Positions 34,925 to 50,323 of a DNA stretch of 64,000 bases are shown in pieces. Below the pieces are notes generated by a model that ran no database searches, was not told where the DNA came from, and saw nothing but the letters and a program-made list of their open reading frames with translations. Position 1 is the stretch's first letter. The number at the start of each line of letters is the position of its first letter. Position numbers and translations under genes: made by a program. Source of the DNA: a virus (Duplodnaviria > Caudoviricetes). The DNA lies in the IMG/VR virus record IMGVR_UViG_3300020419_001132; one strand, 5' to 3'.

Positions 34925-34932
34925 TATTTATT
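34925..34932 (-). promoter_or_regulatory. late promoter box AATAAATA
   Basis: TATTTATT on plus, upstream of a GGAG SD and the ATG at 34905. Confidence 0.55.
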
Positions 34933-34963
34933 CAAAAAAGTTTTCTACTATGATAATATCAAA

Positions 34964-34969
34964 TAAGTA
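34964..34969 (+). promoter_or_regulatory. late-type box TAAGTA for the plus-strand oxygenase/halogenase operon
   Basis: TAANTA variant exactly 5 nt before the ATG at 34975, the same spacing as at terL, the 7473 gene and gp14. Confidence 0.45.
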
Positions 34970-34974
34970 GTAGT

Positions 34975-35586
34975 ATGAAGAAAGTTAATATTTTTCCTAC
35001 ACCTATTTATGAATTCCACAATAGTGACATAGATAATGACGATATTGTAGAAAAACTATCTAAGGAAACGCTTAGAGAGCATACTGCACTTAGCTCATTG
35101 GAAGATTTGCACACTAAAGAAGGATATGAGGACTTATTTTTATGGTTTGACGAATGTTTAGACAAAATACACAAAGAAATGCGTTATGACTGTGATAAAA
35201 TAACAATTACTAGTAGTTGGTGTAATAAACAATATGCCCAGTCAGGAATGTATCATTCTCCCCATAAACATACAATGAGCATGTTAAGTGGAGTATACTA
35301 CTGCACTCATGGCGCACCTACATGCTTTCAAGATCCTGTAACACAACGCACAGAAGCACAAATAGAAGTACTACAACACGATTTTACACCTTTTGAATAC
35401 ATAGAAGCTGTGCCAGGAAAACTTATTATCTTTCCAAGTTGGATGTATCATTCTACAACTAGAAGTGTAGAAGAGGTTGATAGATGGAGTATAGCATTTA
35501 ACACATTTCCTGATGGAAAAATAAACTATAATATTGCAAGAGATAGTGTAGTAACACTAAAAGTAGGACAACAAGCTATTAAATGA
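34975..35586 (+). CDS. putative Fe(II)/2OG oxygenase (TIGR02466-like)
   Basis: HSPHKH...LSGVYY...LIIFPSWMYH...RWSIAFN. Confidence 0.75.
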   Translation: MKKVNIFPTPIYEFHNSDIDNDDIVEKLSKETLREHTALSSLEDLHTKEGYEDLFLWFDECLDKIHKEMRYDCDKITITSSWCNKQYAQSGMYHSPHKHTMSMLSGVYYCTHGAPTCFQDPVTQRTEAQIEVLQHDFTPFEYIEAVPGKLIIFPSWMYHSTTRSVEEVDRWSIAFNTFPDGKINYNIARDSVVTLKVGQQAIK

Positions 35587-37055
35587 TTAAAACTATTACT
35601 ATATTAGGTGGAGGTACAGCAGGGCTTATTTCTGCACTAATGTTACGATCTACATTTCACTCTTTAAAAATTACAATAGTTGAATCTAGCGAATATGGTA
35701 TAGTAGGTGTAGGAGAAGGAAGTACCGAGCATTGGGTAGGATTTATGGAACATTGTAATATTAGTGTTCAGGAGTTAATAAAAGAAACAGGTGCTACCTA
35801 CAAGACAGGAATAAATTTTCAAGATTGGAACGGTGTTGGCACATGCTATTGGCATAGTTTAGCTGAAAATGTTTTTGAACAAGATAGTCAAACTGGTGTT
35901 TATGCAAATTTAATAAAACAAATAGCAGACAATAGTGATCCATTAGATTCTGTGTTACCTACAGCATTAAAATCTATGCATACAGAACCTTTCCATAAGA
36001 GCTTTGCCCAATATCATTTTGATACAAACAAGCTAAACACTTTTTTACACAAGTTATGTATGGATAGAAATATTCAAATTGTAGACGACATTGTTGAAAA
36101 TGTTACATTAAGGGACGGTTTTGTTACACATTTGGTAGGTAAAAAGCAATCTTATACTTCAGACTTTTTTATTGATTCAAGCGGATTTAGGAGAGTTATA
36201 GATACTAAGTTACAAGGTACTTGGATAGATTGTAAAAAACAACTTCCTATGAATTCTGCTTATGCGGCGCCTAGTCCTTACGAGGAAAATATTCCGTCAC
36301 ACACGTTAGCAAAAGCATTAAGCTCAGGATGGATGTGGCGTATTCCTACACAGGATCGTTTTGGAAATGGTTATGTATATTGTGATGATTTTATAAGTGA
36401 CGATGACGCTGAAATAGAATTTAGAAATCAGTTTCAACATGACATAAAAATAGCAAAACATATTAAGTTCAATGCAGGATACGTTGATCAGTTTTGGAAT
36501 AAAAATTGTTTAAGTGTAGGACTATCCGGAATGTTTGTAGAGCCTTTAGAAGCAACAAGTATTGGATTTACTATACAACAGATGTTTAGTTTTTGTTCTG
36601 GTATACTTAATTGGAACAATCAAAATCAAATCCCTGCAAAAACATATAACTCCGATTTCAAGAAGGTAGCTGAAAACATTATCGACTTTGTCCAACTACA
36701 CTATATTACAAAAAGGAATGACACAGAGTTTTGGAAGTGGGTAAATACTGGGATACAATTGACAGACTTTAACAAAGAAAATTTAGAAAATTTTAAAAGT
36801 ACGCTACCTGGAAGATATAATTTCAATTATAACTATACCATGTTTAAGGAGTTAAATTGGTTACAAATTATGCACGGACTAGGTATGTTTAACATAGAAA
36901 AAATAAACAAATTATTTTATGACAATCTATATCATACTATTCCTTTTATTAAGCAACATAAAGAGCAACAAGAATATTATAGACGCCAAAACACCTATGT
37001 TCTACATAGGCAGGCCTTAAATACTATTTTAGAAAGAGAAACACATGCATATTAA
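35583..37055 (+). CDS. flavin-dependent (tryptophan-halogenase family) halogenase 1
   Basis: GGGTAG, GVGEGS, catalytic-Lys region ATYKTGI, FFIDSSGF, WMWRIP, FVEPLEAT. Confidence 0.9.
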   Translation: MIKTITILGGGTAGLISALMLRSTFHSLKITIVESSEYGIVGVGEGSTEHWVGFMEHCNISVQELIKETGATYKTGINFQDWNGVGTCYWHSLAENVFEQDSQTGVYANLIKQIADNSDPLDSVLPTALKSMHTEPFHKSFAQYHFDTNKLNTFLHKLCMDRNIQIVDDIVENVTLRDGFVTHLVGKKQSYTSDFFIDSSGFRRVIDTKLQGTWIDCKKQLPMNSAYAAPSPYEENIPSHTLAKALSSGWMWRIPTQDRFGNGYVYCDDFISDDDAEIEFRNQFQHDIKIAKHIKFNAGYVDQFWNKNCLSVGLSGMFVEPLEATSIGFTIQQMFSFCSGILNWNNQNQIPAKTYNSDFKKVAENIIDFVQLHYITKRNDTEFWKWVNTGIQLTDFNKENLENFKSTLPGRYNFNYNYTMFKELNWLQIMHGLGMFNIEKINKLFYDNLYHTIPFIKQHKEQQEYYRRQNTYVLHRQALNTILERETHAY

Positions 37056-38550
37056 TTCGCTTGTAATACTAGGTGGTGGAACAGCAGGCCTTATTTCTGC
37101 ATTGATGGCTAAACACAGCTTTCCACATTTAAAAGTAACTGTAATAGAGTCAAAAGAAATAGGAATAATAGGAGTTGGCGAAGGTTCTACAGAGCAATGG
37201 CAGACATTTATGAATCATATAGATCTAAATGCACAAGATTTGCTTATGAATACTGGCGCTACATACAAGATTGGAATAAAATTTACTAACTGGCATGGAG
37301 ATAATACTGCATACTGGCACAGTTTAGCTGAATGGATGGGTGCCCGAGATAACAGGAATGGAACATACTTTATGTTTCAAAAGTTTATAAGTGAAGGGTA
37401 TGAAAATGAAGTATCTGTCTCTGATACTTATAAGGAAAATAGGCATACTGCTCCTTATGATACAGAAACAAATCAATGGCACTTTGATACAAATAAATTA
37501 AATAGTTATTTTCATCATCTTGCCAAATACAAAGGTGTCATTTTTGAAGATGATACCGTACAAGATGTTATATTAGACAATGAAGGCTTTGTATCTTCTT
37601 TAGTAGGAAAACAAGGACAAAAATATGAAGCAGATTTTTTTATAGACTGTAGCGGTTTTAGAAGAGTAATAGCAAGTAAACTCAATACTAAGTGGATAGA
37701 TTGTAAAAAGCAACTTCCTATGAATAGTGCTATTGCATTTCCTACAGGATATGAAGAGGACATTCCTTCGTATACTGAATCAACTGCACTTAGCAGTGGG
37801 TGGACTTGGCGTATTCCTACTCAGGAACGTTTTGGAAACGGATATGTATACTGCGACGACTTTATTAGTGACGATGATGCATTTAAAGAAGTGTCTATGA
37901 GGCACAAGGAAACTATAGAAATAGGTAAAAAAATTAAATTTGGCGCAGGGTATGTAGATAAGTTTTGGAATAAAAATTGTATATCTATGGGGTTAGCAGG
38001 CATGTTTGTAGAACCTTTAGAGGCAACAAGTATTGGAAGTACAATAGAACAAGGTTTCGGATTTCTTACTAGTATTCCTTATTGGAGTAGGCATGATACT
38101 ATACAAGAAAAACAATATAATAAAGTATTTAAGGAAGTAGCTGAAAATATAATATCTTTTGTACAAATACATTACATTACAGAACGTAGAGATAGCGAAT
38201 TTTGGCGTTGTGTAAACAATGATTTACAACTAACCGAATTCAATAAAGAATACTTAGAGTCATTTAAGCAACACATGCCAAGTTTAAATATGTTTACTAA
38301 TGATTTTATATTGTTTAAATGTGTAAATTGGACACAGGTAATGTGGGGTCTTAGAATGTATAATGATAGGGAACTAATAAAACAAAACTATAACAAACAT
38401 TTTTCTTATATGAATGATTGGTTCGAAAAAGAAAAAGCCTGGAGACCAAAAGTAGCACTAAAGCATCGAGAGTGTCTTGCAAAGATTATGAAAGGCGAAG
38501 ATTGTCAGCACGTAAATTATGATCGTAGCACTGATCCTAATTTTAATTGA
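37045..38550 (+). CDS. flavin-dependent halogenase 2 (tandem paralogue)
   Basis: GGGTAG, GVGEGS, ATYKIGI, FFIDCSGF, WTWRIP, FVEPLEAT. Confidence 0.9.
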   Translation: MHINSLVILGGGTAGLISALMAKHSFPHLKVTVIESKEIGIIGVGEGSTEQWQTFMNHIDLNAQDLLMNTGATYKIGIKFTNWHGDNTAYWHSLAEWMGARDNRNGTYFMFQKFISEGYENEVSVSDTYKENRHTAPYDTETNQWHFDTNKLNSYFHHLAKYKGVIFEDDTVQDVILDNEGFVSSLVGKQGQKYEADFFIDCSGFRRVIASKLNTKWIDCKKQLPMNSAIAFPTGYEEDIPSYTESTALSSGWTWRIPTQERFGNGYVYCDDFISDDDAFKEVSMRHKETIEIGKKIKFGAGYVDKFWNKNCISMGLAGMFVEPLEATSIGSTIEQGFGFLTSIPYWSRHDTIQEKQYNKVFKEVAENIISFVQIHYITERRDSEFWRCVNNDLQLTEFNKEYLESFKQHMPSLNMFTNDFILFKCVNWTQVMWGLRMYNDRELIKQNYNKHFSYMNDWFEKEKAWRPKVALKHRECLAKIMKGEDCQHVNYDRSTDPNFN

Positions 38551-39146
38551 TCTTGTAATTCTTCCTCAACAAACTCACTTTTATAACCAAATGGTAATCC
38601 TAACTTAGGTCTACCATCATAGATTAAATCTGCGTTTTCACCATTAACATCAACATATTGAATAAAAACTTGAATTTGTTCATCACCTTCATATGGTCCT
38701 TCTCTCCAATGAGAAAATTTTGCTCCACTGTATACTAACATATCACCAACAGAAAGATCTGCACATAATGGATTATCACTGTCAGGTCCGTCTGCACATA
38801 GAAACCATGGTGTATTTCCTTTTTCTAAACATATAGATACGCTAAATTCACTACTACGTCGATCAAAGTGTTTGTTGAGTCTTGCTCCTGGTCTATATAT
38901 TCTTCCGTAAGAGTAAGATGGTGCTAGTTCTTTGTCTACAAGTTTTTCAATAATTGGCTTAACTGTTAAACTTAAAGCTTCAAGACATGGTGGACAGTAA
39001 GCATTATAACTGTCACCAAATTCTGGTTCTTGTCGTATAGATTGTGGGTCTAGCTCTTGTATAACACCTTCCATTATTCTCATTTCTGTACTAATAAATT
39101 TACATAATTCTTCGCTTACCTGTTTACATAAAATTACTGGATTCAT
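38517..39146 (-). CDS. Fe(II)/2OG oxygenase
   Basis: YSYGRIY, HxD (KHFDR), SVSICL, HWRE. Confidence 0.8.
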   Translation of the reverse strand: MNPVILCKQVSEELCKFISTEMRIMEGVIQELDPQSIRQEPEFGDSYNAYCPPCLEALSLTVKPIIEKLVDKELAPSYSYGRIYRPGARLNKHFDRRSSEFSVSICLEKGNTPWFLCADGPDSDNPLCADLSVGDMLVYSGAKFSHWREGPYEGDEQIQVFIQYVDVNGENADLIYDGRPKLGLPFGYKSEFVEEELQDQLKLGSVLRS

Positions 39147-39415
39147 ATGCTTATTCCTTTTGATTTTTCTATAGCATCTATAATCTCATCTGAACGTACA
39201 CATTTTACTGATTGTATTTTTCCTGGTGGCATACCTTTATAGTCACTCAAAAGGTTTGCAACTAATCCGGGGTAGACGGCTGGATCGGTTATATCAGCTT
39301 GACACAATACTTCCTCTTGGTAAAAAGGTTGAGCAAATACATACATATTTTTTGTACCGTCTGCATTTAGACCGGAAAAAGTAACAACAATCATGAATAC
39401 TATCTCTTTTATCAT
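39143..39415 (-). CDS. small hypothetical protein with a hydrophobic N-terminus
   Basis: 90-aa ORF, signal-like MIKEIVFMIVVTFSGL, two Cys. Confidence 0.55.
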   Translation of the reverse strand: MIKEIVFMIVVTFSGLNADGTKNMYVFAQPFYQEEVLCQADITDPAVYPGLVANLLSDYKGMPPGKIQSVKCVRSDEIIDAIEKSKGISI

Positions 39416-39954
39416 ATCGGCATTAGGCTGAACTGTTGATAGGGAAAGTCCGGCTCCTCATGTATATCAAAACCAAGGGTAATTCTTGGTGTTGTAAACG
39501 GTTCTATAACTTCAACCTTATGCATTCTATTACCAGGTCCAATGTAAATATTTCCTAATTCGTTCTTTATTTTATAATTATCAAAAACTGTTTCTGTATT
39601 TTTAGGATCAATAGAAATATACCCATGGTATGGCCATTCGTGATTATGCCAGTCTAAAACTTCTTCTGGTTTGTGGAAGTTTAACCAACTTTGCATCCAT
39701 AATGGATTCTCATGTCCAATAAATTCTCTAATATATTTTTTTAATTCTACTAATAAATCGTACCATAAAGGACTAGGTGAAGTAGCACAGAATATATTAT
39801 AAAGGTTGTAAGACCAAGTACTATCTTTTTCCGGAAAAGACTTTTTAAAAAATTCATGTACAGCATATAAATCAGTTATCATTTGTCCACTGTATTTGAC
39901 AATGAGTTCTGATTTATATACCTTATAATCACATGACATTTTGCATTCTCGCAA
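39412..39954 (-). CDS. putative Fe(II)/2OG oxygenase
   Basis: SWLNFH, WHNH, HGYISI, HKV, RITLGFD; true start probably downstream of 39954. Confidence 0.65.
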   Translation of the reverse strand: MRECKMSCDYKVYKSELIVKYSGQMITDLYAVHEFFKKSFPEKDSTWSYNLYNIFCATSPSPLWYDLLVELKKYIREFIGHENPLWMQSWLNFHKPEEVLDWHNHEWPYHGYISIDPKNTETVFDNYKIKNELGNIYIGPGNRMHKVEVIEPFTTPRITLGFDIHEEPDFPYQQFSLMPI

Positions 39955-40570
39955 AATTAATATTTAATAGTATTCTGTAAGGTGTGTGTTTATTTGGACT
40001 ACTAGAATGATAATAAAATCCTGGAAATGCAACAATCTTTCCTTGCTTTGGTGTAATTTTATGCTTTACTGTAAACTTTGTGTTAGTTACATAGTCTTGA
40101 TCGTTGGTATCATATTCTTTATTTGTTTCATTAAAAATATAAGTTTCTCCTGAACTATCATTTAGATAATAAATTACATTCCAGTGTTCGTACCAAGAAT
40201 CAATATGCGGTAAATGATGTTCTTGTGGATTATCTCTTACACGTTCATTTAAGTTTAATCTCATTCTTTCTAAACTATTGTTAGGAAATAATTCTAAATC
40301 TTGTATTGTCATCACTAACGGATGGAATATATCAAACATTGGACTTATAATTTTTTGTTCCTCAAATAAAAAGTGATTCCATCCAACAGGATTATAATCA
40401 CTATCTTTTGTAAACATATCTGATGAAACTTGATGTTTATTTAAGTACCAAGGAAATTGTTTATCTGTAACTCTTTCTAAAAGAGTTTTTTGGTATGTTT
40501 TTCCTATAACATTTTCTATTTCAATTATATCATCTGTCATATTATCCTCCTGCATGGGCATAAAACACAA
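39929..40570 (-). CDS. putative Fe(II)/2OG oxygenase
   Basis: PHID, IYYLNDSSGET, YYHSSS, RILLNIN; true start probably MTDD. Confidence 0.75.
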   Translation of the reverse strand: MCFMPMQEDNMTDDIIEIENVIGKTYQKTLLERVTDKQFPWYLNKHQVSSDMFTKDSDYNPVGWNHFLFEEQKIISPMFDIFHPLVMTIQDLELFPNNSLERMRLNLNERVRDNPQEHHLPHIDSWYEHWNVIYYLNDSSGETYIFNETNKEYDTNDQDYVTNTKFTVKHKITPKQGKIVAFPGFYYHSSSPNKHTPYRILLNINFARMQNVM

Positions 40571-41240
40571 GAGTCAGTCTCGATGTTTCTTTACTGTTTC
40601 CAAAAAAGTTATCCGCACTATGCCAAGTTTTTGGATCAAACAAAACACATCTATTAAAAACATTATCTATATTAACACTAGGAGTAAAATAAGAACGTTG
40701 TTTATTTCTATGTTTTGTTGCTTGTTGTCTTTGTTCAGGTGTAGAATTTAAACAATCCTGTTGTATTAATTTATGATATTCTCCATACTCTTCTGATATT
40801 CTATCATCGTATAATGTTGTTCCTGAGTTTAACGGAGCGTTGCCATTAAGATATATAATACCTGTAATTGTTGTATCAGGATCGTCATCATGTACCCAGC
40901 CGTTAACAAAAGTTTCGTCTACCATAAAAAAAGAAGCATTTAAATAATAAAATCCTGTGTACATTGGTAACAATTCTAATAATCTTTCACCAAAAGAATC
41001 AAACAATCCTTTGTCGATTTCAGCTAATGGTGTTGATCTTTGTCCCGGATATGTAGTTACTGTTGCTGGATAATATTTTTGTTGTAGAGCAATATGCCTC
41101 CATAGATGTGGTTCAGGAAAAAAGTCTTCTATAATTCTAGTAGGAAACCTTGGAAATTTTTTTCTATTTTTTAAATCTAACTGATTAATTTTTGTAGATG
41201 CATTTACTGAACTTTGATCTATAAAATCTATATCTGCCAT
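40542..41240 (-). CDS. putative Fe(II)/2OG oxygenase (DUF6445-like)
   Basis: IIEDFF, YPGQRS, WVHDD, GIIYLN, SGT, FNRCVLFD, WHSA, RLTLVFY. Confidence 0.72.
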   Translation of the reverse strand: MADIDFIDQSSVNASTKINQLDLKNRKKFPRFPTRIIEDFFPEPHLWRHIALQQKYYPATVTTYPGQRSTPLAEIDKGLFDSFGERLLELLPMYTGFYYLNASFFMVDETFVNGWVHDDDPDTTITGIIYLNGNAPLNSGTTLYDDRISEEYGEYHKLIQQDCLNSTPEQRQQATKHRNKQRSYFTPSVNIDNVFNRCVLFDPKTWHSADNFFGNSKETSRLTLVFYAHAGG

Positions 41241-41929
41241 TTAAATACTCCATTACAAAAAAAGACTAGAGTCATTCTTGCATCAGCAGACTCTTTACCA
41301 AAAAAGTTTTCTGCACTATGCCATTGCCTAGGATCAAACATAATACATCTGTTAAATCTTGATTCAGCTGTAATTGTTGTTTTAAAAAACGAACGCTGTT
41401 CTAATCTATGATTTCTAAATTTTTCTGGATCATCTCCACAGACATCTTGATGAAATATATCTGTATATTTCTGCATATTAACATCACCTTGTTGGTTATA
41501 TATTACTGTGCCAGATCCTTGAATAACAATATCATTCAAATATATTACACCTGCAAGGTCGTGTGATTCATCATCGTCATGCACCCAACCACTACCAAAG
41601 TTTTCAGGAATAATTTGAAAGGTCATGTCAGATGCAGTAAAGGAGTGAAATAAGCCAGATGCTTTTAACAACTTGCTTTCTATTGTTTCAACTAAGTCAG
41701 GATCTAAATCTTTTATCATAGGGGAACGTAATCCAGGCCAGGATCCTCTATCTCCTTTGTAATATTCTAATCCAATAGCATATTGTCTTACTAGTTGTGG
41801 CAATTCAAAAAAATCGTCTATAACTATAGTAGGGTGCAATGGTTTTTTCTGTTTTCCTTTAAAATTTCTCATTATAGTGTAAAGTTTACTGTTAAAACTA
41901 CTCTCTTTGTGTGTATTTTTGGGCAACAA
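41228..41929 (-). CDS. putative Fe(II)/2OG oxygenase (DUF6445-like, paralogue of 40542-41240)
   Basis: VIDDFF, WPGLRS, WVHDD, GVIYLN, FNRCIMFD, WHSA, RMTLVFF; true start probably MRNF. Confidence 0.72.
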   Translation of the reverse strand: MLPKNTHKESSFNSKLYTIMRNFKGKQKKPLHPTIVIDDFFELPQLVRQYAIGLEYYKGDRGSWPGLRSPMIKDLDPDLVETIESKLLKASGLFHSFTASDMTFQIIPENFGSGWVHDDDESHDLAGVIYLNDIVIQGSGTVIYNQQGDVNMQKYTDIFHQDVCGDDPEKFRNHRLEQRSFFKTTITAESRFNRCIMFDPRQWHSAENFFGKESADARMTLVFFCNGVFKWQI

Positions 41930-42435
41930 CTTGCATGATATCTAGATCCGTCAAACACAACTGCACTATTGATATCACCTTCAAATACTTCATGTGTGGT
42001 GTATTTGTCTACTTTTTCAGTTTCATTGAAAACATGTGTTCTACCATCACTATGCCAAAAATGATAACACGCAGTAATATGTGGGAAGTCTGCATCTATA
42101 TGTGGTTCGTTAAACGCATATGGTTCATGGGGTGTTATGTATCTAGTGTTCATTAAAAGTCCTAAACGCATTCTAAAAACTTTTTTAGGTTGTACATCTA
42201 GTTGATCTATTATACCTTGGTATACAGGTGTAAACCTATCTAAATACTCACTCCTGTGCTGATTGTGTAATAACAAGTGTGCAAATGCAGGTGTTGACCT
42301 ACTTTTTTTATCAGACCGTTCGTATGTTGTATCTTCTAAATAATACCAAGGAAAATCTAAACTAGTTATTAAATTGCACAATTCTTGGTGTGTATTTGTA
42401 TCAACAACACCTGCTAGTTTTTTAGTTTCAAACAT
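41872..42435 (-). CDS. putative Fe(II)/2OG oxygenase
   Basis: FPWYY, PHID, SDGRT, FDGSRYHAS, RVVLTVN. Confidence 0.72.
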   Translation of the reverse strand: MFETKKLAGVVDTNTHQELCNLITSLDFPWYYLEDTTYERSDKKSRSTPAFAHLLLHNQHRSEYLDRFTPVYQGIIDQLDVQPKKVFRMRLGLLMNTRYITPHEPYAFNEPHIDADFPHITACYHFWHSDGRTHVFNETEKVDKYTTHEVFEGDINSAVVFDGSRYHASCCPKIHTKRVVLTVNFTL

Positions 42436-43165
42436 TTTTTCTCCTATGTATGTGATATATATTTCTATCCACGCTTGTGTTAGGTCTGTCTGTTGCTAGT
42501 TTGTTCCAGCAAGGCACACTGACACTAATTCTTTCTCCTTTAGGTTTTGCACAATGATATGCCCTTGAAGGAATATATAATGCATCTCCTGGTTTCAAGT
42601 TTACCTTTAATTCTACTTCTAAATCTTCTTCTTTTAACTTTCCGTTCATTAATCCTGATTTGTATAGATAGCTAATTCTATTTTTAAATAAAGTCCACTC
42701 TGTCTCTCCTTCTATTTGAAAAATAAAATTAGCAGGATAATCATCATGTATTGTAAAAGATTTTGTGTCCTGCATTCCACAATAAACATGAGCGGCGGCA
42801 TGTATATCAAACATTTGTTCCAAGTTATTTAATAACTCTGTAATAGGCTTATTATGAAATCCGTAGTTCATAATGATAAGAGTATTACCGGTGTTAAATC
42901 TATTAAACAAGAACTGTTTATCTTGTACTAATTTCCCGCCAAACTCCCATGCTTTTTCAGACATAGGTATATCAATTTTATTATTGTGTTGATCTATCAT
43001 TTCAAAATTATAAAAATGAGGATTATTTAAGCAGTCTTCGATATCTTGCCAAGAGACAAGAGATTTGTAGCTTTCATTGACAAGTAAATTTTCAAAAAAA
43101 TGTGGCTTGTCTTCATAGAATAGGTTTGTAGTGTTCATGAAAACTTGCCCAATGTTATTAAACAT
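42428..43165 (-). CDS. JmjC/cupin-4 family oxygenase
   Basis: SFTIHDD (HxD), FIFQIEGETEW, LKPGDALYIPSRAYHCA. Confidence 0.82.
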   Translation of the reverse strand: MFNNIGQVFMNTTNLFYEDKPHFFENLLVNESYKSLVSWQDIEDCLNNPHFYNFEMIDQHNNKIDIPMSEKAWEFGGKLVQDKQFLFNRFNTGNTLIIMNYGFHNKPITELLNNLEQMFDIHAAAHVYCGMQDTKSFTIHDDYPANFIFQIEGETEWTLFKNRISYLYKSGLMNGKLKEEDLEVELKVNLKPGDALYIPSRAYHCAKPKGERISVSVPCWNKLATDRPNTSVDRNIYHIHRRKNV

Positions 43166-43781
43166 TTTCTTCTATCCTTAAATTAAAAGCTAAAGAAATT
43201 CTAGGCTCTTCTGATTCACTTGGTAAAACACCATGTTGTAACCATGCTGGAAACAGCACTACTCTACCTTCTCTTGGTGGATATCTCGCTGTTACTCCAC
43301 TTAATGCTGTGTATCTATCATACGAAGCTGTAATTGTTGCTAGTGCAAATTCTTCTAGATAATTTCTATAAAAAATTATATCGCCTGATCCTTTTGGTAT
43401 TTTAAGATAATATGTTCCGGCAATAAAAGACCCGCCGTGTATATGCAACTGATTTATATCTCTTCCTTTATTTTCATTAAACCAAATATTTCCACAAGTG
43501 AGTCTATATCTTTCTGGGTTCAAACCAAAGTCTTCCAAACAGCTTGTGCCAAATGATTGTATCCATTTTATGAATTTCTCTGTTGCTGGAAAGTCACTAG
43601 GCATAAAATTTCTAGTTTGATAGCCGCCAAAGTTACTTAACCAAACTCCTTTGGGATCATCTTCTTTTAAAAATTTAAATAATTCTAATAGTTCTGTATT
43701 GTCGTAGGAAGTATCACTCCACCAGATTGGCGTTGGAAAATAAAAATCACAGTTTAATCTCTTATCCGTGGGCAAACGCAT
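43158..43781 (-). CDS. putative Fe(II)/2OG oxygenase (TIGR02466-like)
   Basis: IWFNEN, LHIHG, AGTYY, LFPAWLQHGV, RISLAFN. Confidence 0.78.
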   Translation of the reverse strand: MRLPTDKRLNCDFYFPTPIWWSDTSYDNTELLELFKFLKEDDPKGVWLSNFGGYQTRNFMPSDFPATEKFIKWIQSFGTSCLEDFGLNPERYRLTCGNIWFNENKGRDINQLHIHGGSFIAGTYYLKIPKGSGDIIFYRNYLEEFALATITASYDRYTALSGVTARYPPREGRVVLFPAWLQHGVLPSESEEPRISLAFNLRIEENV

Positions 43782-44550
43782 ATGTATGGCTCCATCTAAA
43801 GTTTACTGATTTTTCTACATATGCTAAATGACAAATATCGGACTTATATACAGTCATAGTATTTTGGACACAATCGGCCATTCCTAAATATTCAAATCCA
43901 AATCTTTGTAGTTCTTTATCATCGAAGTTAAACCAGCTATTATTTCTTCCTTGTCTAAGCATGTCCTGATATTCGTCATACAGTTTATGCTTAGGATCAA
44001 CTGCAAAATCATAACCGCCAGAAAGTTTGTTACCTATATACTTATAGAACTTTGTTCCTGACGTTCCTTTTTCATGGTTTGTGAACCATAAATTTCCAAC
44101 CATTCCTTGAGGATAATCTATGTGTGGTATTCTATATCCAATAATAGGTTTAGCTCTATCTTTATAATACACATTCCCCCATTCAAATACACGTGGATTT
44201 TTAAAGTTATTTAAAGCGTAATCTAAACTCCAATGGCCACTAAAATGCTGTTGTATATAAAAATCTCTAAGTAATAAACAGATATCTTTGTGTAACCAAT
44301 CGGGTATATGTATAGTATCAAAAGGATTAGGGTCTGGATTATCGGGCCTATTGTTATCTTTAGATATAGGAAAACAAGATACTAATTCTTTGTACAATTC
44401 AAATGTATCATTTTCAAAAGGTGATTGTAGTATCCAGTACCCAATATCTTTATCAAGACTTACATATTGGTGCTTTATGTCTTTTGCATTTTTAAACTTT
44501 ACCACATTTGGAAAAGTATTTGCATCAGGCTTGCATACTTTGAACTGCAT
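43762..44550 (-). CDS. putative Fe(II)/2OG oxygenase-like protein
   Basis: PHID, GNLW, SGTKFY, CHLAY, RWSH. Confidence 0.55.
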   Translation of the reverse strand: MQFKVCKPDANTFPNVVKFKNAKDIKHQYVSLDKDIGYWILQSPFENDTFELYKELVSCFPISKDNNRPDNPDPNPFDTIHIPDWLHKDICLLLRDFYIQQHFSGHWSLDYALNNFKNPRVFEWGNVYYKDRAKPIIGYRIPHIDYPQGMVGNLWFTNHEKGTSGTKFYKYIGNKLSGGYDFAVDPKHKLYDEYQDMLRQGRNNSWFNFDDKELQRFGFEYLGMADCVQNTMTVYKSDICHLAYVEKSVNFRWSHTYAFAHG

Positions 44551-45136
44551 TTGGTGTTCCTACATTTATAGTTAATACTACTCTTTCTTCTTCTGAGTTG
44601 TTGGGTTGAACTCTATGTTTTAACCACCCAGGAAAAATTAATATATCATTTGTTTTACAAGGAATGGCTGTCCAAAGATCTGTTTCTGGATTAATATAAG
44701 AGTTTGCTTTGTGATATTCTAAAGGATCTCTGAATTCTATAAATCCACCGTTGTCTGGTAGATTTAGATAACAAGTAACTACAAAGTCAACAAGGTTATG
44801 AGAATGCTCTAATGTTTCTCCTCCTAGTCCATGTGTGTTTATCCAGGATTGTAATAAACAATTTTCTTTGTCTAATATCCTATGTTCTGTATATATTCTT
44901 TTTAGTGTAATTAAAAGTTCTGCACAAAAGTCTTTAAATTCTGGCCATAAATGTGGAGGATTAGATTGATGTGCAACTGTTGAATATGCTACGCCTTTTT
45001 CAAGAAGAGATGTGTTATTTGGGCGTTCTGAGATATACTCTTGGACTGTGGATTTTATATTTTTATAATTGAGATCGTATGAGGTTTTAAAAAGTAGTGT
45101 AGCCCAGGGATTAATATATACTCCATTAGATAGCAT
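44525..45136 (-). CDS. putative Fe(II)/2OG oxygenase (TIGR02466-like)
   Basis: SWINTH, EHSH, CYLNLP, IFPGWLKHRV, RVVLTIN. Confidence 0.78.
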   Translation of the reverse strand: MLSNGVYINPWATLLFKTSYDLNYKNIKSTVQEYISERPNNTSLLEKGVAYSTVAHQSNPPHLWPEFKDFCAELLITLKRIYTEHRILDKENCLLQSWINTHGLGGETLEHSHNLVDFVVTCYLNLPDNGGFIEFRDPLEYHKANSYINPETDLWTAIPCKTNDILIFPGWLKHRVQPNNSEEERVVLTINVGTPNAVQSMQA

Positions 45137-45371
45137 TTTCTTGACAAGTTTCTATAGCTAATTGCAAACCCATCATAGTGCCTTCCATTTTCATTATATC
45201 TTCCATTAGCTCTTGTCTTTCTGAAAAGTCAATAGTAGTAACACCATAAGGATTAAGTTTTGTATCGTGTAAATTTTCCTCAACTGTTTTTAATTTTTCT
45301 TCTGTCTTCTCTTTTGTAATTTTAATATTAGCACAGACTTTTTCCAATTGTTCTATGATTTTTTCACTCAT
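45126..45371 (-). CDS. small coiled-coil hypothetical protein
   Basis: 81-aa Glu/Lys-rich ORF coupled within the operon. Confidence 0.6.
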   Translation of the reverse strand: MSEKIIEQLEKVCANIKITKEKTEEKLKTVEENLHDTKLNPYGVTTIDFSERQELMEDIMKMEGTMMGLQLAIETCQENAI

Positions 45372-46177
45372 TTTTTTCTCCTATTACTACGATACTTATC
45401 GATAACTTTACGCACTCTAACTAAGCGTGACTTTAATGAATCAAACTTGTAAATTACAGAACTTAATGTATAATTAAAAGATCTTTCCATTTTCCTATCT
45501 TCGTCGGTCGCTTCATCACATATAAAATTAAAATGTGAAGAAACATATGCTTTTCTTGGAATAGGAATGTACTGTATTAAAGGGGTTCCTGCTTTAACTA
45601 GTTCTTCTCCATTTAACACATGCCAAAATAGTTGCACATTAAGAACGTGTGCATATCTAGGATCTAGTAATCCTGTTGCTGGTGTGAATCTTTTTTCATT
45701 TGAATAGTGTACAGGAACTTGTAAAAGTAAGTAATCGTCATCTAATTCTACTCTCCACGGTGTGTGTATTTTCACTACTGTTTTTAAACTTTTACTTGGA
45801 TCATCTAGTATTCTTTCTGTTTGATTTTGATCATGAAAGTCTATATATTTGTCTTGTCCATAACCTTGTTCAAGATTAAATCGTTGGGCTTCGCTATATT
45901 TAAAATTTACACCATCACCGTCTGTTGTAATAATAAAATCTGCAGGTGCTGTTAGTACCCAACCTGCATTTAACATTAATTTTATACCGGGACAATTTTT
46001 TGTAGCAATACTACCGTCGTTTGGATGAGGATTACTAGGTAATTTAATCCAAGGACGTTTTACAGATGCTGTCGGAATAATAGGATGTAAGTCTGCAACA
46101 CCTTCTTGCAAACTATAAAATCTAGCTATAGGTTTCTTTTTTTTAAAAAGATTAAACATCATGCTCGTCAACGCCAC
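45368..46177 (-). CDS. hypothetical protein (DUF6065-like beta-rich fold)
   Basis: CPGI...GWVLTAPAD...KIHTPW...GTPLIQYIPI pattern typical of phage oxygenase clusters. Confidence 0.5.
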   Translation of the reverse strand: MALTSMMFNLFKKKKPIARFYSLQEGVADLHPIIPTASVKRPWIKLPSNPHPNDGSIATKNCPGIKLMLNAGWVLTAPADFIITTDGDGVNFKYSEAQRFNLEQGYGQDKYIDFHDQNQTERILDDPSKSLKTVVKIHTPWRVELDDDYLLLQVPVHYSNEKRFTPATGLLDPRYAHVLNVQLFWHVLNGEELVKAGTPLIQYIPIPRKAYVSSHFNFICDEATDEDRKMERSFNYTLSSVIYKFDSLKSRLVRVRKVIDKYRSNRRKK

Positions 46178-47777
46178 CGTAAATATTATCTTTCAAATAT
46201 TCATAATGTGTTGGTAAAGTTTTAATATACTTTATATACTTTTCTTTTTCGTTTAAGAATCTATTTTTTATCTGTTCTAAGTCTCTTCTTCTTTGTTGTT
46301 CAATTTCTGGACTTTTTCCATGTTTAGCAGTAAACATATGTTCACTAGAAACAGGTCTAACACCCATTCCTGCCATTATAAAGTTCATTCCCTGCATCTG
46401 CGGGTTCATAGCTTGATCGCCATAAACTGTACTGTATGCCATTGCATTGTAATCGTCTCTTGGTACATGAATACCGTTAAGCTCTGGGTCATAATCATTT
46501 GTCTGTGTTGCCCAACGCCAATACGGTGTATCTTGTCTCATTGATAGTCCATAATGGTTTGAAACAAATCTAGCAAATTGGTCTATCGATCTGTTTACAG
46601 TAAAATTATAAACTTCTCTCTCAGTTCTTGATACATAACCTTGTCTTTGATTTAATATACCAATTAAAGAAATAATATTTTCGTGTGTTGTTAACAATCC
46701 TGTTGATTCTAAAGGTTCAACAAACCCGTAACTAAGTCCAATACCAAGTACATTGCCCACCCATGCTTTGACTCTCTTTCCATGTTTAATAGGTATGTTA
46801 AAGTAATCTAATTCTTCTACATTAACGTTTTTATGTACTGTTTTAAGGTGTGCTTTAAATTCTTTTAGTGCTACATCCTTGTGTACAAATCTACTACTGT
46901 AAACATATCCAGTTCCAATTCTATTCCATAATGGAATATTCCATACCCAACCGTTTCCTAATGCATGACAATCGGTAACGTTATGCATTTGTTCTTTTCT
47001 ATTACTATAGGGTAATCTTACAGCCCAAGCATAATCATTTGCTAGTATACCTTTGTAAGAATGGAATATAGATCCTTGCCAACCTTCTAACATAAAAGAT
47101 TTAAAACCAGAACAGTCAATAAATAGATCTGCACCTATGTCTTTGTCTCCTTCAATTAACAAAGAGTGTGTAAAACCTTTATCATCGTGTTTTCTAGCTA
47201 CTACATTTGCCTTTATGTGTGTTACTCCTGCAGGAATACATACCTTGTCACGTAAATATATTCCAAATGCTGTTGCGTCCATATGATAGGCTGTATCATA
47301 ATTAAAATTAAAATATCGTAGTTTGTTGTTTTTATTATCAGTTTGTCTATTATGTGTTGCAAGTAAAGTATTACTTAGTGCATGGAATTCAGCAAACGAC
47401 TTAGGACCAAATTCTTCTGGATATAAAGCAGACAATTCAGACCAAGTAATTAAATTATCTCCTCCTGAGTAGCTATAATCATAGTCATCAACAAAAGGAT
47501 ACTCAAAATGTGTTCCATTATTTTCTCTAAAATTTGTAAATCTGATTGAATTCTTATATGTAGCATTACAAGCAGGCATCCAGTCTTCATCTTTAAGACC
47601 TAACAACCTCATATATCTGTTGATATGTCCTAGTGTAGATTCGCCAACGCCTACAGTTTTAATATTGGGTGATTCAACTAGTGTTACTTTAATGTGAGGA
47701 CAAAGTTTTGCAATGGCCGCGGCAGTCATCCAACCGCTGGATCCTCCTCCTACTACGCATACTCTTTTAATTTTCAT
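46152..47777 (-). CDS. flavin-dependent halogenase 3
   Basis: GGGSSG, GVGEST, ATYKNSI, FIDCSGF, WVWNIP, FVEPLESTG; ATG start MKIK at 47777. Confidence 0.92.
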   Translation of the reverse strand: MKIKRVCVVGGGSSGWMTAAAIAKLCPHIKVTLVESPNIKTVGVGESTLGHINRYMRLLGLKDEDWMPACNATYKNSIRFTNFRENNGTHFEYPFVDDYDYSYSGGDNLITWSELSALYPEEFGPKSFAEFHALSNTLLATHNRQTDNKNNKLRYFNFNYDTAYHMDATAFGIYLRDKVCIPAGVTHIKANVVARKHDDKGFTHSLLIEGDKDIGADLFIDCSGFKSFMLEGWQGSIFHSYKGILANDYAWAVRLPYSNRKEQMHNVTDCHALGNGWVWNIPLWNRIGTGYVYSSRFVHKDVALKEFKAHLKTVHKNVNVEELDYFNIPIKHGKRVKAWVGNVLGIGLSYGFVEPLESTGLLTTHENIISLIGILNQRQGYVSRTEREVYNFTVNRSIDQFARFVSNHYGLSMRQDTPYWRWATQTNDYDPELNGIHVPRDDYNAMAYSTVYGDQAMNPQMQGMNFIMAGMGVRPVSSEHMFTAKHGKSPEIEQQRRRDLEQIKNRFLNEKEKYIKYIKTLPTHYEYLKDNIYGGVDEHDV

Positions 47778-47804
47778 ATACAATCATTCCTTTAAATGCT
47801 CGTA

Positions 47805-47811
47805 TATTTAC
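47805..47811 (-). promoter_or_regulatory. late promoter box GTAAATA heading the halogenase 3 / oxygenase operon
   Basis: TATTTAC on plus, upstream of an AAGGAA SD. Confidence 0.55.
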
Positions 47812-47844
47812 TTAAAAATGCTATAGGCAGGTTATAAAAGCGAT

Positions 47845-48093
47845 TTAGGACTCTATTGCTGTAAATGTTGGATTTGAAGCCCTAAACAGATTACCGTTCC
47901 ATGTTGTTTTGTAATTAAGATCATCTGTATCGTAATGTAAAGTAATAGTTTGTCCTGCCGCTACTCCTCTTGGAATAGTTATAGACATCTTAACTTTTTT
48001 TTCAAAACTAACCAATGTACAGTCTTCAAAGATCTTTCCTGTAGAATAATTTTCACAAATAACTGGACTTTTTGGTATAAATGTAACTGGCAT
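47845..48093 (-). CDS. hypothetical protein
   Basis: 82-aa ORF coupled to the upstream gene. Confidence 0.6.
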   Translation of the reverse strand: MPVTFIPKSPVICENYSTGKIFEDCTLVSFEKKVKMSITIPRGVAAGQTITLHYDTDDLNYKTTWNGNLFRASNPTFTAIES

Positions 48094-48593
48094 TAGCTAT
48101 CTCCCTTATTGTAGCCCCACCAAGCAGGACATCTTTTCCATGCTGGCATCTGTTCGCTTGAAATTTTCATTGGCTGGTCTACACTAGGTTCTCTAATTTC
48201 ATCATATGCTCTTTGCTCTTCAGGTGATAAGTTTTCTCCAGTTGTCTTATCTGGTGCAGGTATGCTTGTTTTAATTAAATCAATATGATTAACCCAAGAA
48301 CCGCCGGCCATATTATTTGCTTTTATATCGTGATATAACATATCTAATTGTGCGCCTACGTCTCCGTATGCAACTTTTCTTTGCATTTCTCTATCAGGAT
48401 GTGGTTCGTCTCTTTCAACCCAAACCATTTCTCCTTTAGATGGACTATACTCTAGTGTCCACATTAATGTGATGTTGTCGGGTGCATCTACCCATTGAAA
48501 CGTTGCATCAGGGCCATTGTAGATCTCAAAATCATCTCCTGGATCTTCAATTTGCATCACATACCCTGCCGCACCTACGATTGCTTTTTTCAT
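48093..48593 (-). CDS. putative tail-fibre assembly/chaperone-like protein
   Basis: RKVAYGDVGAQLDMLYHDI...WVNHIDLIK motif, directly downstream of three fibre-tip paralogues. Confidence 0.45.
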   Translation of the reverse strand: MKKAIVGAAGYVMQIEDPGDDFEIYNGPDATFQWVDAPDNITLMWTLEYSPSKGEMVWVERDEPHPDREMQRKVAYGDVGAQLDMLYHDIKANNMAGGSWVNHIDLIKTSIPAPDKTTGENLSPEEQRAYDEIREPSVDQPMKISSEQMPAWKRCPAWWGYNKGDS

Positions 48594-49450
48594 TATCTAT
48601 ACTCCGTAATTACGATCATGCCGACTCGTCCATCAGCACCTCTAAAGCCACTAAAGTACCCACCAGTACCTCCACTGCCTGGAGCGGCGTGACTTTGATG
48701 ATTGTGTGAAAAGTTTCCGCCCTGTGGGTGTCCTGCGGCGGTATTACCACCCCAATATGAATGCCCACCTGGACCGTGACTTTGGTGATGACTACCACCT
48801 CCTCCACAGTGGATGTTTAAGTTTCCCCCGGAACCGCTACCACTAACGCCTCCTGAGTGTTGATTATTTCTGTTACCACCATATCCTCCGCCTGCTGATA
48901 GATAAGGTCCAAATGATGAACTTGACCCATTACCAGCACCGCCGGAATAGTAAGTACCACCACCTCCACCACCTATCGTACAATAGACGTTTGATATACT
49001 TGTAACATTAATAATTTCTTCTGAATAGCCTCCAGCACCACCTGACTCTCCGTGACCTCCGCCACCTCCTCCACCGCCCATTACCTGAACGTGAATATAT
49101 CTGGTTCCTGATTGTCTGTACCAAGTAGTACTACCTGTGTATACAGCCTGTCTTACTATTCCAAAATTGTTTACCCATTCTAGTCCATTTCCGCTAGAAT
49201 TTGTTCTTAACATATTACCACTACTTCCAATAGAAGTAATGCCAGATCCACCTTTGTTTGTTGCTAGTGTACCTGAGGTTGTATCTGTGTTTAGACCAAC
49301 TGCTCCGGTTCCTATTTTACCAGATGTAACCTGATTGTTTCCAATTTTTCCTGTTTTTACTTCTGAATTTCCAATGTCAGCTGTTTTGACTTGATCATTA
49401 ATCACTGCTGTAGCTGTTAGTTTTTTTAATGTTTGATAATTAAATGCCAT
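48593..49450 (-). CDS. Gly/His-rich fibre-tip (adhesin-like) protein, paralogue C
   Basis: MAFNYQTLKK; polyGly runs; GHGESGG, NRNNQHSGG, GHPQGGNFSHNHQSH. Confidence 0.7.
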   Translation of the reverse strand: MAFNYQTLKKLTATAVINDQVKTADIGNSEVKTGKIGNNQVTSGKIGTGAVGLNTDTTSGTLATNKGGSGITSIGSSGNMLRTNSSGNGLEWVNNFGIVRQAVYTGSTTWYRQSGTRYIHVQVMGGGGGGGGHGESGGAGGYSEEIINVTSISNVYCTIGGGGGGTYYSGGAGNGSSSSFGPYLSAGGGYGGNRNNQHSGGVSGSGSGGNLNIHCGGGGSHHQSHGPGGHSYWGGNTAAGHPQGGNFSHNHQSHAAPGSGGTGGYFSGFRGADGRVGMIVITEYR

Positions 49451-49460
49451 GTGTTAATCC

Positions 49461-50318
49461 TTAATAAAACTCATATACAACGATCATACCGTTTCTGCCA
49501 TTAGCACCTCGAAAGCCACTAAAATATCCACTAGTACCTCCACTGCCTGGTGCGGCATGTCCTTGATGATTGTGTGAAAAATTACCACCTTGTGGGTGTC
49601 CTGCGGCAGTATTACCACCCCAGTATGATGGACCTCCAACGGAAGATCTAGTGTGATGAGCTTGTCCGCCACCACCGTATACATTTAAGTTACCTCCTGA
49701 TCCGTTAACACTAAGTCCGCCTGAGTGTTGATTATTTCTATTTGCTCCATAACCGCCTCCACCTGACAAATAAGGGCCAAATGATGATGATGATCCATTG
49801 CCTGCGGCACCGGAATAATATGTTCCTCCTCCACCGCCACCAATTGTAATAGATACACTACTAATTCCTGTAACATCTAAAACTTCTTCTGCATATCCAC
49901 CGCCACCGCCGGATTCTCCGTGGCCACCGCCACCTCCTCCTCCGCCTACAACGCAGACTTTTACATAACGTACTCCACTTGGTCTACTCCAAGTTGAACT
50001 ACCTGTATAAACACTCATGCTTCTAATTCCGTATGGACGATATTGTAATGCTGATCCGCCATCGTTATATCCTAAAGCATAATAAGCATTACTAGGATTA
50101 CTACTTAAACCTGTACCTCCAGAACTAACAGGTAATGTTCCTGTTACTATCGATCCGGTCATACTAACAGAACCTGTAGCAAGTTTATCAGAAGTTACTG
50201 CGCCATCATTAATATCTGCAGTTTGTACAGTTAAGTTAGCAAGATCTGCTTCTTTAATTTCTCCGTCGATAATTGACTCTGATTTAACTTTTTTTAATGT
50301 TTGATAATTAAATGCCAT
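49461..50318 (-). CDS. Gly/His-rich fibre-tip protein, paralogue B
   Basis: MAFNYQTLKK; the same invariant motifs, HNHQGH. Confidence 0.7.
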   Translation of the reverse strand: MAFNYQTLKKVKSESIIDGEIKEADLANLTVQTADINDGAVTSDKLATGSVSMTGSIVTGTLPVSSGGTGLSSNPSNAYYALGYNDGGSALQYRPYGIRSMSVYTGSSTWSRPSGVRYVKVCVVGGGGGGGGHGESGGGGGYAEEVLDVTGISSVSITIGGGGGGTYYSGAAGNGSSSSFGPYLSGGGGYGANRNNQHSGGLSVNGSGGNLNVYGGGGQAHHTRSSVGGPSYWGGNTAAGHPQGGNFSHNHQGHAAPGSGGTSGYFSGFRGANGRNGMIVVYEFY

Positions 50319-50323
50319 TTTTT

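Follow-up and report, generated by a model that had tools for sequence, protein, structure and literature searches.

The flavin-dependent halogenase VirX1 of cyanophage Syn10 (PDB 6qgm) is prized as a biocatalyst and is, to our knowledge, the only viral halogenase that has been characterised. The enzyme is a trimer with a preference for iodide, a broad substrate range, and a large, unusually open active site that accepts bulky substrates (PMC8407142). It halogenates many small heterocycles in vitro, the tabulated kinetics being those for the nitrogen heterocycle 6-azaindole, and the VirX1 review gives neither a natural substrate nor a biosynthetic pathway for it (PMC8407142). The 2-oxoglutarate (2OG) oxygenases of cyanophages have so far been explained only by guesses, namely DNA repair, a drain on 2OG, or antibiotic protection. 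One 2OG oxygenase has been detected in the virion proteome of a cyanomyovirus (PMC12801897). Here we analysed a 64,000-nt stretch of tailed-phage DNA (IMG/VR record IMGVR_UViG_3300020419_001132), referred to below as the window, in which a 13-kb cluster carries three predicted halogenases and eleven predicted oxygenases with a double-stranded beta-helix (DSBH) fold. This analysis places the VirX1 gene in a tightly packed operon with a late-type promoter; it comes directly after fibre-tip genes both in 11 cultured phages and in upwards of 80 relatives from the environment.

The cluster consists of two convergent operons, as a preliminary description of this DNA had proposed (Table 1), and at their 3' ends both include 38517-38550. 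According to the listing of open reading frames (ORFs) and Pfam, the plus-strand operon (34975-38550) comprises one 2OG-FeII_Oxy_5 protein and two Trp_halogenase proteins. The minus-strand operon (47783-38517) contains 14 genes that overlap or abut throughout, with halogenase 3 in first position. The earlier count of three halogenases and eleven oxygenases was right, but it left out three ORFs of the cluster that are neither (45368-46177, 45126-45371, and 39143-39415). Fibre-type genes lie at either side of the cluster, again as described. In one marine run, a contig fuses position 34118 to 38532 with 90 other letters between them, which would take out all of the plus-strand operon; its shorter side is 21 nt, and the contig may be an artefact or another strain.

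Judged by annotations and reciprocal BLAST, the minus-strand operon is the known, annotated, and functionally unstudied VirX1 cassette of Syn9 and Syn10 (gp42-gp54), because it matches Syn9 and S-CREM1 gene for gene. Thirteen of its 14 genes have counterparts there in near-identical order, at 34-57% identity. The order is the Gly-rich gp38/gp39, gp40, the halogenase gp42, gp43, and gp44, followed by the gp45, 46, 48, 49, 51, 52, 53, 47, and 54 types; the intergenic gaps from gp40 to gp54 of Syn9 range from 16 to -26 nt. What varies here is the presence of three halogenases, a duplicated gp52 type, the convergent add-on, and a host phage of much greater size. When the 13-kb cluster was compared with GenBank phages by Megablast, no match was returned, and relatives were detected at the protein level only.

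An IMG/VR search with gp43 gave 23 loci, and a search with a gp40 alignment gave 269 relatives; the best 80 of these 269 together with one locus from the earlier search made up the 81 loci compared here. The results showed that one or more adhesin genes are followed by gp40 and then by the halogenase in all 81 loci, with the oxygenase series next wherever the flank was long enough. Clustering of their halogenases gave 38 groups at 90% identity and 13 at 70%. Among cultured phages, 11 have a gp40 homologue (at least 67% query coverage), and in every one a VirX1-type halogenase lies adjacent or just downstream. Cassette-bearing cultured cyanophages span several named Kyanoviridae genera. The number of oxygenases varies from about three (S-WAM1 and S-SZBM1) up to 11, and the plus-strand add-on differs among relatives. 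Co-occurrence of the cluster with Gly-rich fibre genes had been proposed beforehand as a check, and it was found in both the environmental loci and the cultured cyanophages. In six relatives (L054, L061, L083-L085, and L100), gp40 and the halogenase are separated by an additional oxygenase gene of the gp48 type.

We compared gp40 proteins with and without a linked halogenase. The N-terminal domain is conserved, with a YG..QLDMLY motif. After fibre-type genes, P-RSM4 and S-H25 encode short forms of it (114 and 102 aa, respectively) that end before the tail; both phages lack the halogenase cassette. In all 81 long, halogenase-linked forms, the domain is extended by a variable linker and then a tail that has P-x-W beyond residue 100; these forms contain six to nine Trp in about 165 residues. 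As read from these alignments, the Trp-rich P-x-W tail of halogenase-linked gp40 is a new detail; the halogenase-less class is small, comprising P-RSM4 and S-H25, which were read, and S-TIM4 and S-CAM8 as similar short matches only. An atlas search with gp40 (score 0.75) was uninformative. The three Gly-rich paralogues upstream pass PF21722, match phrog_863, and reach 66% identity to Syn9 gp38. Their His, Tyr, and Gln motifs (GHGExG, GTYY, GANRxNQH, and HPQGG..F.H.H..H) are kept in at least 90% of 154 adhesin-like sequences. The fibre tips had been regarded as the obvious substrates of the modifying enzymes. The adhesins remain candidates, but gp40 is likewise a candidate halogenase substrate or adaptor, and its Trp-rich tail is a candidate target no worse than they are.

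Both operons had been described as headed by a TAANTA box and as expressed late. In the window, TAANTA occurs 242 times against 379 expected from shuffles and is therefore uninformative here. The full octamer TATAAATA, which is the T4 late promoter core consensus, occurs once against 10 expected. Both motifs were dropped for TAAATA at a fixed distance, which precedes 14 of 58 starts by 12-50 nt compared with 1.4 expected, an enrichment of about ten-fold. The genes preceded by it include those for sheath, tube, neck, and fibres, the 2898-aa fibre protein, and halogenase 3. Among environmental relatives with more than 40 nt between gp40 and the halogenase, 66 of 67 have TAAATA in this gap, and Syn9 has a GATAAATA box 32 nt ahead of gp40. 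The site on the minus strand thus coincides with an enriched and conserved motif, although the TAANTA pattern itself is not significant. The plus-strand site (TAAGTA, 34964-34969) lies only 5 nt from the ATG and differs from the enriched motif, and the late box proposed there did not hold. By these motifs, the minus-strand operon has a T4-type late promoter core that is kept in relatives, and the head of the plus-strand operon does not.

Scans of 33000-52500 for sigma-70 promoters and terminators stayed at chance level. The deoxynucleoside monophosphate (dNMP) kinase gene in the structural region (24459-25052, minus strand) has a near-perfect sigma-70-type promoter upstream (TTGACA-17 nt-TATAAT), unlike the TAAATA boxes of its neighbours, and is a useful internal control for early versus late signals. 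Contigs from a marine RNA library cover much of the minus-strand operon and the fibre genes; they give no strand, ends, level, or timing, and missing cover on the plus-strand operon counts as no evidence.

All three halogenases match Pfam Trp_halogenase (PF04820) over their full length, with 322, 343, and 318 bits against a cut-off of 21, and keep the GxGxxG, ATYK lysine, WxWxIP, and FxEPLE[AS]T motifs, in agreement with the preliminary description. Halogenase 3 is 52.5% identical to the Syn9/Syn10 halogenase, and its best PDB match, VirX1, is followed by the next only at E 3e-70. The probable start of halogenase 3 is the ATG at 47777 behind AAGGA, and the ORF itself opens at TTG 47783. Its full-length match and kept neighbours assign it by sequence to the VirX1 orthologue group, which holds for halogenase 3 only. 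Halogenases 1 and 2 share 53% identity, against about 27% with halogenase 3, and belong to a clade other than the VirX1 type. The closest phage relatives of halogenase 1 show about 36% identity; a PDB search with halogenase 2 placed 9luq, Thal, and PrnA on top, with MibH and VirX1 among the weakest matches. A likeness to MibH-type enzymes, suggested earlier, was not borne out, as 5uao, which we take to be MibH, stood near the bottom of the PDB lists (E 4e-41 and 7e-40). Pfam scans found no lanthipeptide or proteusin enzymes in the cluster, and a MibH-type cluster for ribosomally synthesised peptides that are modified after translation (RiPPs) was ruled out on both grounds. The reported absence of a flavin reductase was upheld in the nearest 117-kb record, which contains no PF01613 protein, so that FADH2 would have to come from a host enzyme.

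We then assessed the eleven oxygenases, for which the proposed DSBH fold and metal ligands were borne out with support that is graded from Pfam to weak PHROG/DUF6445 matches. Sequence reading identified HxD or HxH with a distal His in all eleven. HxD...H is present in seven and HxH...H in four (34975, 39412, 43158, and 44525), all of the PF13759 type; these HxH-type enzymes may do without 2OG. Fe/2OG halogenases, in which HxG/A replaces HxD, were ruled out, as none of the eleven shows this pattern. Seven pass Pfam cut-offs (34975, 39929, 40542, 41228, 42428, 43158, and 44525), in the families PF13759, PF13640, DUF6445 (twice), and, for 42428, JmjC_2. Two of the others are supported by paralogy: 41872-42435 (gp51 type) is a paralogue of the Pfam-positive 39929-40570, and 39412-39954 (gp47 type) is related to the PF13759 protein 44525-45136, with a marginal phrog_81 match. 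The gp46 type (43762-44550) has phrog_1644 in common with the DUF6445 proteins, together with a weak DUF6445 match and an invariant HxD..H..R. The last one, the gp54 orthologue, is supported by its predicted fold. The names 'ferrochelatase', 'DNA endonuclease V', and 'minor coat protein' have spread through cyanophage and PHROG records for what are DSBH oxygenase-like proteins.

The gp54 orthologue (38517-39146) had no Pfam match even at E 5, and a profile search of the PDB with its alignment gave nothing useful. H93, D95, H146, and R148 are invariant in 12 homologues; an invariant Arg after the distal His was seen in the gp54 and gp46 alignments, the two families in which it was looked for. 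Its AlphaFold (AF2) model has a predicted local distance difference test score (pLDDT) of 84, and the nearest folds were those of enzymes that hydroxylate prolines in proteins, namely PPHD, vCPH of PBCV-1, and PHD2 (E about 5e-8), the PPHD structure being one solved in complex with EF-Tu. According to this model, gp54, annotated as 'ferrochelatase', folds like protein prolyl hydroxylases, which is a second new detail. The gp49 type (42428-43165) scores 51.7 bits with JmjC_2 (PF08007) against a cut-off of 22, and its closest solved chains by sequence are NO66 (best) and YxbC, with MINA53 among the matches. The protein has 245 aa, and the part that aligns to the 440-490-aa NO66 and MINA53 chains is the catalytic core (query 105-207). 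The ribosomal oxygenase (ROX) family carries extra dimerisation and winged-helix domains. These additional domains have no match in the short protein, which was ruled out as a ROX enzyme. The two oxygenases nearest to protein hydroxylases are thus the gp49 type, by sequence to NO66, and gp54, by fold to PPHD, vCPH, and PHD2.

The remaining genes of the minus-strand operon gave weaker signals. The gp43 orthologue (45368-46177) resembles DUF6065, and its model (pLDDT 85) was compared with the PDB by Foldseek. The top matches were all dUTPases (E 3e-4, probability 1.0), with template modelling (TM) scores of 0.5-0.68 by target and about 0.3 by query. The only solved look-alikes are dUTPases and dCTP deaminases, and an AFDB search gave the same picture. 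The model therefore suggests, weakly, a dUTPase-like beta-clip fold for gp43, which is also a new detail. The C-terminal Gly-rich motif of dUTPases was not found in the gp43 alignment by eye, without a structural alignment. The name 'triphosphate nucleotidohydrolase' in cyanophage records stands for a protein with only a weak dUTPase-like fold. Of the 81 environmental loci, 70 have gp43 immediately after a full-length halogenase of the VirX1 type; in most others the downstream flank is short, and two (L090 and L107) lack gp43 after two halogenases despite enough flank. Records of cultured phages list the halogenase with the features at the gp43 match in all cases except Syn10 and S-CREM1, for which it lies directly upstream by coordinates, and S-WAM1 and S-SZBM1 have a smaller ORF in place of gp43. 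Complex prediction for halogenase 3 with gp43 scored 0.00, which speaks neither for nor against binding. Pfam found no match even at E 5 for gp43, gp40, or the small ORFs, and gp43, gp44, and the 90-aa ORF (39143-39415) matched no scaffold-enzyme, carrier-protein, or transporter family.

A gp43 scan of 185,579 prokaryote genomes gave two matches, on a contig of a metagenome-assembled genome and on a 3.6-kb contig of the single-cell assembly of Prochlorococcus sp. AG-418-C09 (35% identity). Both contigs are probably viral. The latter probably comes from a phage by which the cell was infected, and would tie a more distant cassette type to Prochlorococcus.

We propose that the halogenases and oxygenases carry out late tailoring of the phage's own fibre-module proteins, a reading to which we assign a probability of roughly 45%. 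It is preferred because the cassette forms a single late unit with the fibre tip, no other biosynthetic enzyme or transporter was recognised, the divergent oxygenases are retained one by one as separate orthologues, protein hydroxylases are the closest relatives of two of them, and the active site of VirX1 is open. The idea of post-translational tailoring of virion proteins, put forward in the preliminary description, is thus favoured by the linkage, the late box, and the two protein-hydroxylase-like oxygenases; the likeness to MibH and the plus-strand box failed, and the S-H25 adhesin occurs without a cassette. The siderophore-like and protease-protection roles raised there are conjectures.

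If fibre-module tailoring is correct, the cassette enzymes would be made late together with the fibre proteins and would act in the cytoplasm, ahead of assembly. With O2, halide, and flavin that a host reductase has reduced, the halogenase would halogenate the side chain of an aromatic residue, for which the best candidates would be the invariant Trp of the gp40 P-x-W and the conserved His/Tyr loops of the Gly-rich adhesins. Each oxygenase, kept as its own orthologue, would hydroxylate a different residue of His, Pro, Asp/Asn, or Lys type. Gp43, with its dUTPase-like fold, and gp44 may be non-catalytic or nucleotide-binding accessories, and the plus-strand trio of one oxygenase and two other-clade halogenases may be a variable add-on of the same kind. 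A wider claim is more doubtful, though possible: that VirX1-family enzymes in general are protein halogenases whose natural substrate is their own fibre module, through the gp40 P-x-W Trp, the Gly-rich adhesins, or both.

Several observations weigh against fibre-module tailoring. No modified residue has been observed in any phage, and the timing of expression comes solely from a promoter motif. All relatives belong to T4-like marine lineages, and the conserved gene order may therefore partly reflect common descent. Identity to Syn9 is 34-57% for the cassette genes and 37-40% for core virion proteins, which gives the cassette no clear lead over the core in conservation. In S-H25, a homologue of the Gly-rich adhesins occurs without a cassette; this homologue aligns to about residue 190 only, not over the His-rich end. 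VirX1-type and other halogenases also occur in contexts other than fibres, such as beside a recombination nuclease in S-B64 and beside a terminase in HTVC008M. The fold matches of gp54 also take in the small-molecule enzymes SnoN, FtmOx1, and HalD, and gp43 has a weak match to a nucleotide-enzyme fold. We know of no characterised member of PF13759, DUF6445, or the gp46 and gp47 families.

The alternative that survives best, which we nevertheless consider unlikely, is that these are auxiliary metabolic genes. The halogenases would act on free tryptophan, indoles, or host metabolites, the oxygenases would oxidise metabolites or consume 2OG, and their place beside fibre genes would be owed to chance in a hyperplastic region. 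A small-molecule role, of antibiotic type or on host metabolites, is the published view (PMC2984593, PMC9964418, PMC10452541), and modulation of 2OG/NtcA has been proposed (PMC3037559). It agrees with the action of VirX1 on many small heterocycles in vitro (PMC8407142), with the free-substrate enzymes 9luq, Thal, and PrnA as nearest relatives of halogenases 1 and 2, and with the SnoN, FtmOx1, and HalD likeness of gp54. It is harder to square with the cluster ORFs and scanned flanks, which yielded no further enzyme family, carrier protein, or transporter; the scanned flanking genes are structural or fibre-type. The cassette promoter is of late type, not of sigma-70 type as ahead of the dNMP kinase gene, and the adhesin-gp40 order is invariant in the 81 loci. 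Eleven deeply divergent oxygenases, each kept as an orthologue, are also hard to reconcile with a 2OG sink.

Late modification of host proteins (ribosome, EF-Tu, or envelope), sustaining translation or preparing lysis, appears improbable. The nearest solved relatives of the JmjC protein are the ribosomal oxygenases NO66 and MINA53, and the PPHD fold nearest to gp54 was solved with EF-Tu; yet the catalytic core alone of the 245-aa JmjC protein aligns, nothing ties the halogenases to host proteins, and the strict linkage to gp40 and the adhesins would be left unexplained. Slightly more improbable is nucleotide or nucleic-acid chemistry, that is, halogenation or hydroxylation of bases or nucleotides, or oxidative repair of DNA or RNA, with gp43 as a nucleotide-handling subunit. 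The weak dUTPase/dCTP-deaminase-like fold of a protein that in nearly all cases comes after the halogenase (TM about 0.3 by query, Gly-rich C-terminal motif not found by eye) is the starting point of this alternative, and one of the 12 gp54 homologues touches the AlkB-type PF13532 at E 0.017. Among the eleven oxygenases of the cluster, none matched the AlkB, TET, or JBP families at a meaningful score. Base modification is as a rule early or middle, with which the late timing and fibre context are at odds. The VirX1 kinetics tabulated for 6-azaindole (PMC8407142) can be counted on the side of nucleotide chemistry, as can a suggestion of DNA repair for cyanophage 2OG enzymes that is quoted in PMC3037559. 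Least probable of all is the absence of any common function, with independently acquired enzymes persisting in a permissive insertion hotspot downstream of fibre genes. The variable oxygenase number and plus-strand add-on and the early view of prnA as a transient gene (PMC1079782) speak for it; intact catalytic ligands in all 14 enzymes, an orthologue order kept across 13 halogenase clusters (70% identity), and overlapping genes as in a single translationally coupled unit speak against it.

The phage in the window is not a typical cyanomyovirus, as judged from its tail sheath (20678-24043, minus strand, 1121 aa). The closest sheath is that of Agrobacterium phage Atu_ph07 (42%); against the jumbo phages Atu_ph07, Phosso, and PA5oct identities are 41-45%, whereas only the last 176 residues align to Syn9, at 40%. 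A near-identical IMG/VR record was used for sequence beyond the window, and relatives reach 278 kb at an estimated completeness of 75%. No psbA was found in the nearest record or in five large relatives, all of which are fragments. The phage is marine. Sixteen DNA runs from 10 studies hold at least 86% of the sampled words, and five of these may represent the sample from which the DNA came. A transfer of the entire module between lineages is not claimed, since the identities of the cassette to Syn9 are not clearly above those of the core.

Two further loci of the window were recorded outside the cluster. At 28829-29638 (plus strand), a NUDIX hydrolase and a small cupin ('cysteine dioxygenase' in PHROGs) lie on the opposite strand between neck/sheath-stabiliser and fibre genes, the cupin being a further metal oxygenase outside the cluster. 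A 538-aa protein (31685-33301, minus strand), located between two fibre-type genes of the same direction, matches phrog_9158 and a 'protease' PHROG.

Table 1. Predicted genes and promoter elements of the cluster and the adjoining fibre module, with positions in the window.
Feature	Position	Strand	Evidence
DSBH oxygenase, 2OG-FeII_Oxy_5, HxH...H, heads plus-strand operon	34975..35586	+	PF13759 E 2e-16
Halogenase 1, flavin-dependent, 490 aa	35583..37055	+	PF04820 E 1e-95; intact motifs
TAAATA box within 3' end of halogenase 1, 27 nt ahead of halogenase 2 start	37018..37023	+	
Halogenase 2, 501 aa	37045..38550	+	PF04820 E 4e-102
Syn9 gp54 orthologue, prolyl-hydroxylase-like DSBH oxygenase, final gene of minus-strand operon	38517..39146	-	41% identity to gp54
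Lineage-specific 90-aa ORF, hydrophobic N-terminus	39143..39415	-	ORF listing, no family match
Syn9 gp47 orthologue, HxH...H oxygenase-like	39412..39954	-	phrog_2696, phrog_81; 38% identity to gp47; gp45 paralogue
Syn9 gp53 orthologue, 2OG-FeII_Oxy_3/5	39929..40570	-	Pfam and BLAST
DUF6445 oxygenase-like, additional gp52-type copy	40542..41240	-	PF20043 E 2e-11; 35% identity to 41228-41929
Syn9 gp52 orthologue, DUF6445, HDD...H	41228..41929	-	Pfam and BLAST
Syn9 gp51 orthologue, HxD...H, gp53 paralogue; 'DNA endonuclease V' in records	41872..42435	-	PHROG and BLAST
Syn9 gp49 orthologue, JmjC_2 / cupin_8 oxygenase	42428..43165	-	PF08007 E 8e-14; cyanophage orthologues 49-61% identity
Syn9 gp48 orthologue, 2OG-FeII_Oxy_5	43158..43781	-	PF13759 E 9e-23
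Syn9 gp46 orthologue, DSBH-like; 'minor coat protein' in records	43762..44550	-	phrog_1644; invariant H143, D145, H241, R252
Syn9 gp45 orthologue, 2OG-FeII_Oxy_5	44525..45136	-	PF13759 E 8e-12
Syn9 gp44 orthologue, 81 aa	45126..45371	-	57% identity to gp44; no Pfam family at or near cut-off
Syn9 gp43 orthologue, DUF6065-like, possible dUTPase-like beta-clip fold	45368..46177	-	BLAST, predicted fold
Halogenase 3, VirX1 orthologue	46152..47777	-	PDB 6qgm E 3e-187 full length; PF04820 E 1e-94
TAAATA late-type promoter core, 33 nt ahead of halogenase 3 ATG	47805..47810	-	
82-aa ORF, seen only in close relatives	47845..48093	-	
gp40 family protein, N-terminal domain and Trp-rich tail with invariant P-x-W	48093..48593	-	
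Three Gly_rich_2 adhesin-like paralogues (Syn9 gp38/gp39 type)	48593..51175	-	PF21722, phrog_863
2898-aa fibre-like protein behind TAAATA box, opens co-directional fibre block	51994..60690	-	

The literature searched, which did not include the primary VirX1 and Syn9 papers, held no paper on the linkage of cassette and fibre genes, the late-type promoter, or a virion-protein target. The functional reading would be new if true. If the wider claim on VirX1-family enzymes holds, up to eleven dedicated hydroxylases would work alongside the halogenases, and the receptor-binding machinery of abundant marine T4-like phages would be both halogenated and hydroxylated. Enzymatic halogenation of a virion-associated protein would then be seen for the first time. 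With a virion protein as the target, host recognition by these phages would depend on halide and oxygen chemistry; with any other target, the locus is an ordinary member of an annotated cyanophage cassette. The question becomes tractable in the culturable systems Syn9, Syn10, and S-CREM1.

Compared with VirX1 itself, halogenase 3 has the same motifs, about 52% identity, gp40 upstream, and gp43 downstream, but the phage lineage that carries it is far larger, with core proteins that show only 37-40% identity to those of Syn9. The gp38-gp54 blocks of Syn9, Syn10, and S-CREM1 share the gene order and a preceding late-type box with this locus. They contain two VirX1-type halogenases, whereas here there is one; the gp52 type is duplicated, the gp47 type relocated, gp50 missing, and two small ORFs are extra. 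The convergent add-on with two other-clade halogenases is a further difference, and the promoter lies after gp40, not before it.

Among enzymes that modify proteins, mimivirus L230 is a hydroxylase of collagen-like virion proteins, and PBCV-1 vCPH is among the best fold matches of gp54. Both resemble the present system as virus-encoded Fe/2OG enzymes whose reported substrates are viral Gly-rich or collagen-like structural proteins; in eukaryotic giant viruses each is a lone enzyme whose Pro/Lys targets are known, whereas the eleven oxygenases and the halogenases here belong to a tailed phage and have candidate targets only. MibH and SrpI, the latter also a peptide-acting RiPP halogenase, act on Trp in a ribosomal peptide, and here the halogenase gene always adjoins a gene with a conserved Trp-bearing tail. 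They differ in that each of the three halogenases here has 5uao among its poorest PDB matches and that the N-terminal domain of gp40 is folded, of a kind seen behind fibre genes. The ROX enzymes (YcfD/RoxA, NO66, and MINA53) resemble 42428-43165, which passes the JmjC_2 cut-off, but the core alone of this 245-aa protein aligns to them. Finally, the proteins at 48593-51175 resemble the T2/S16 gp38-type Gly-rich adhesins, in that they pass PF21722, bear the name 'tail fiber assembly' in records, and precede a small gene in the chaperone position; they differ from these adhesins in carrying conserved His-rich C-terminal motifs.

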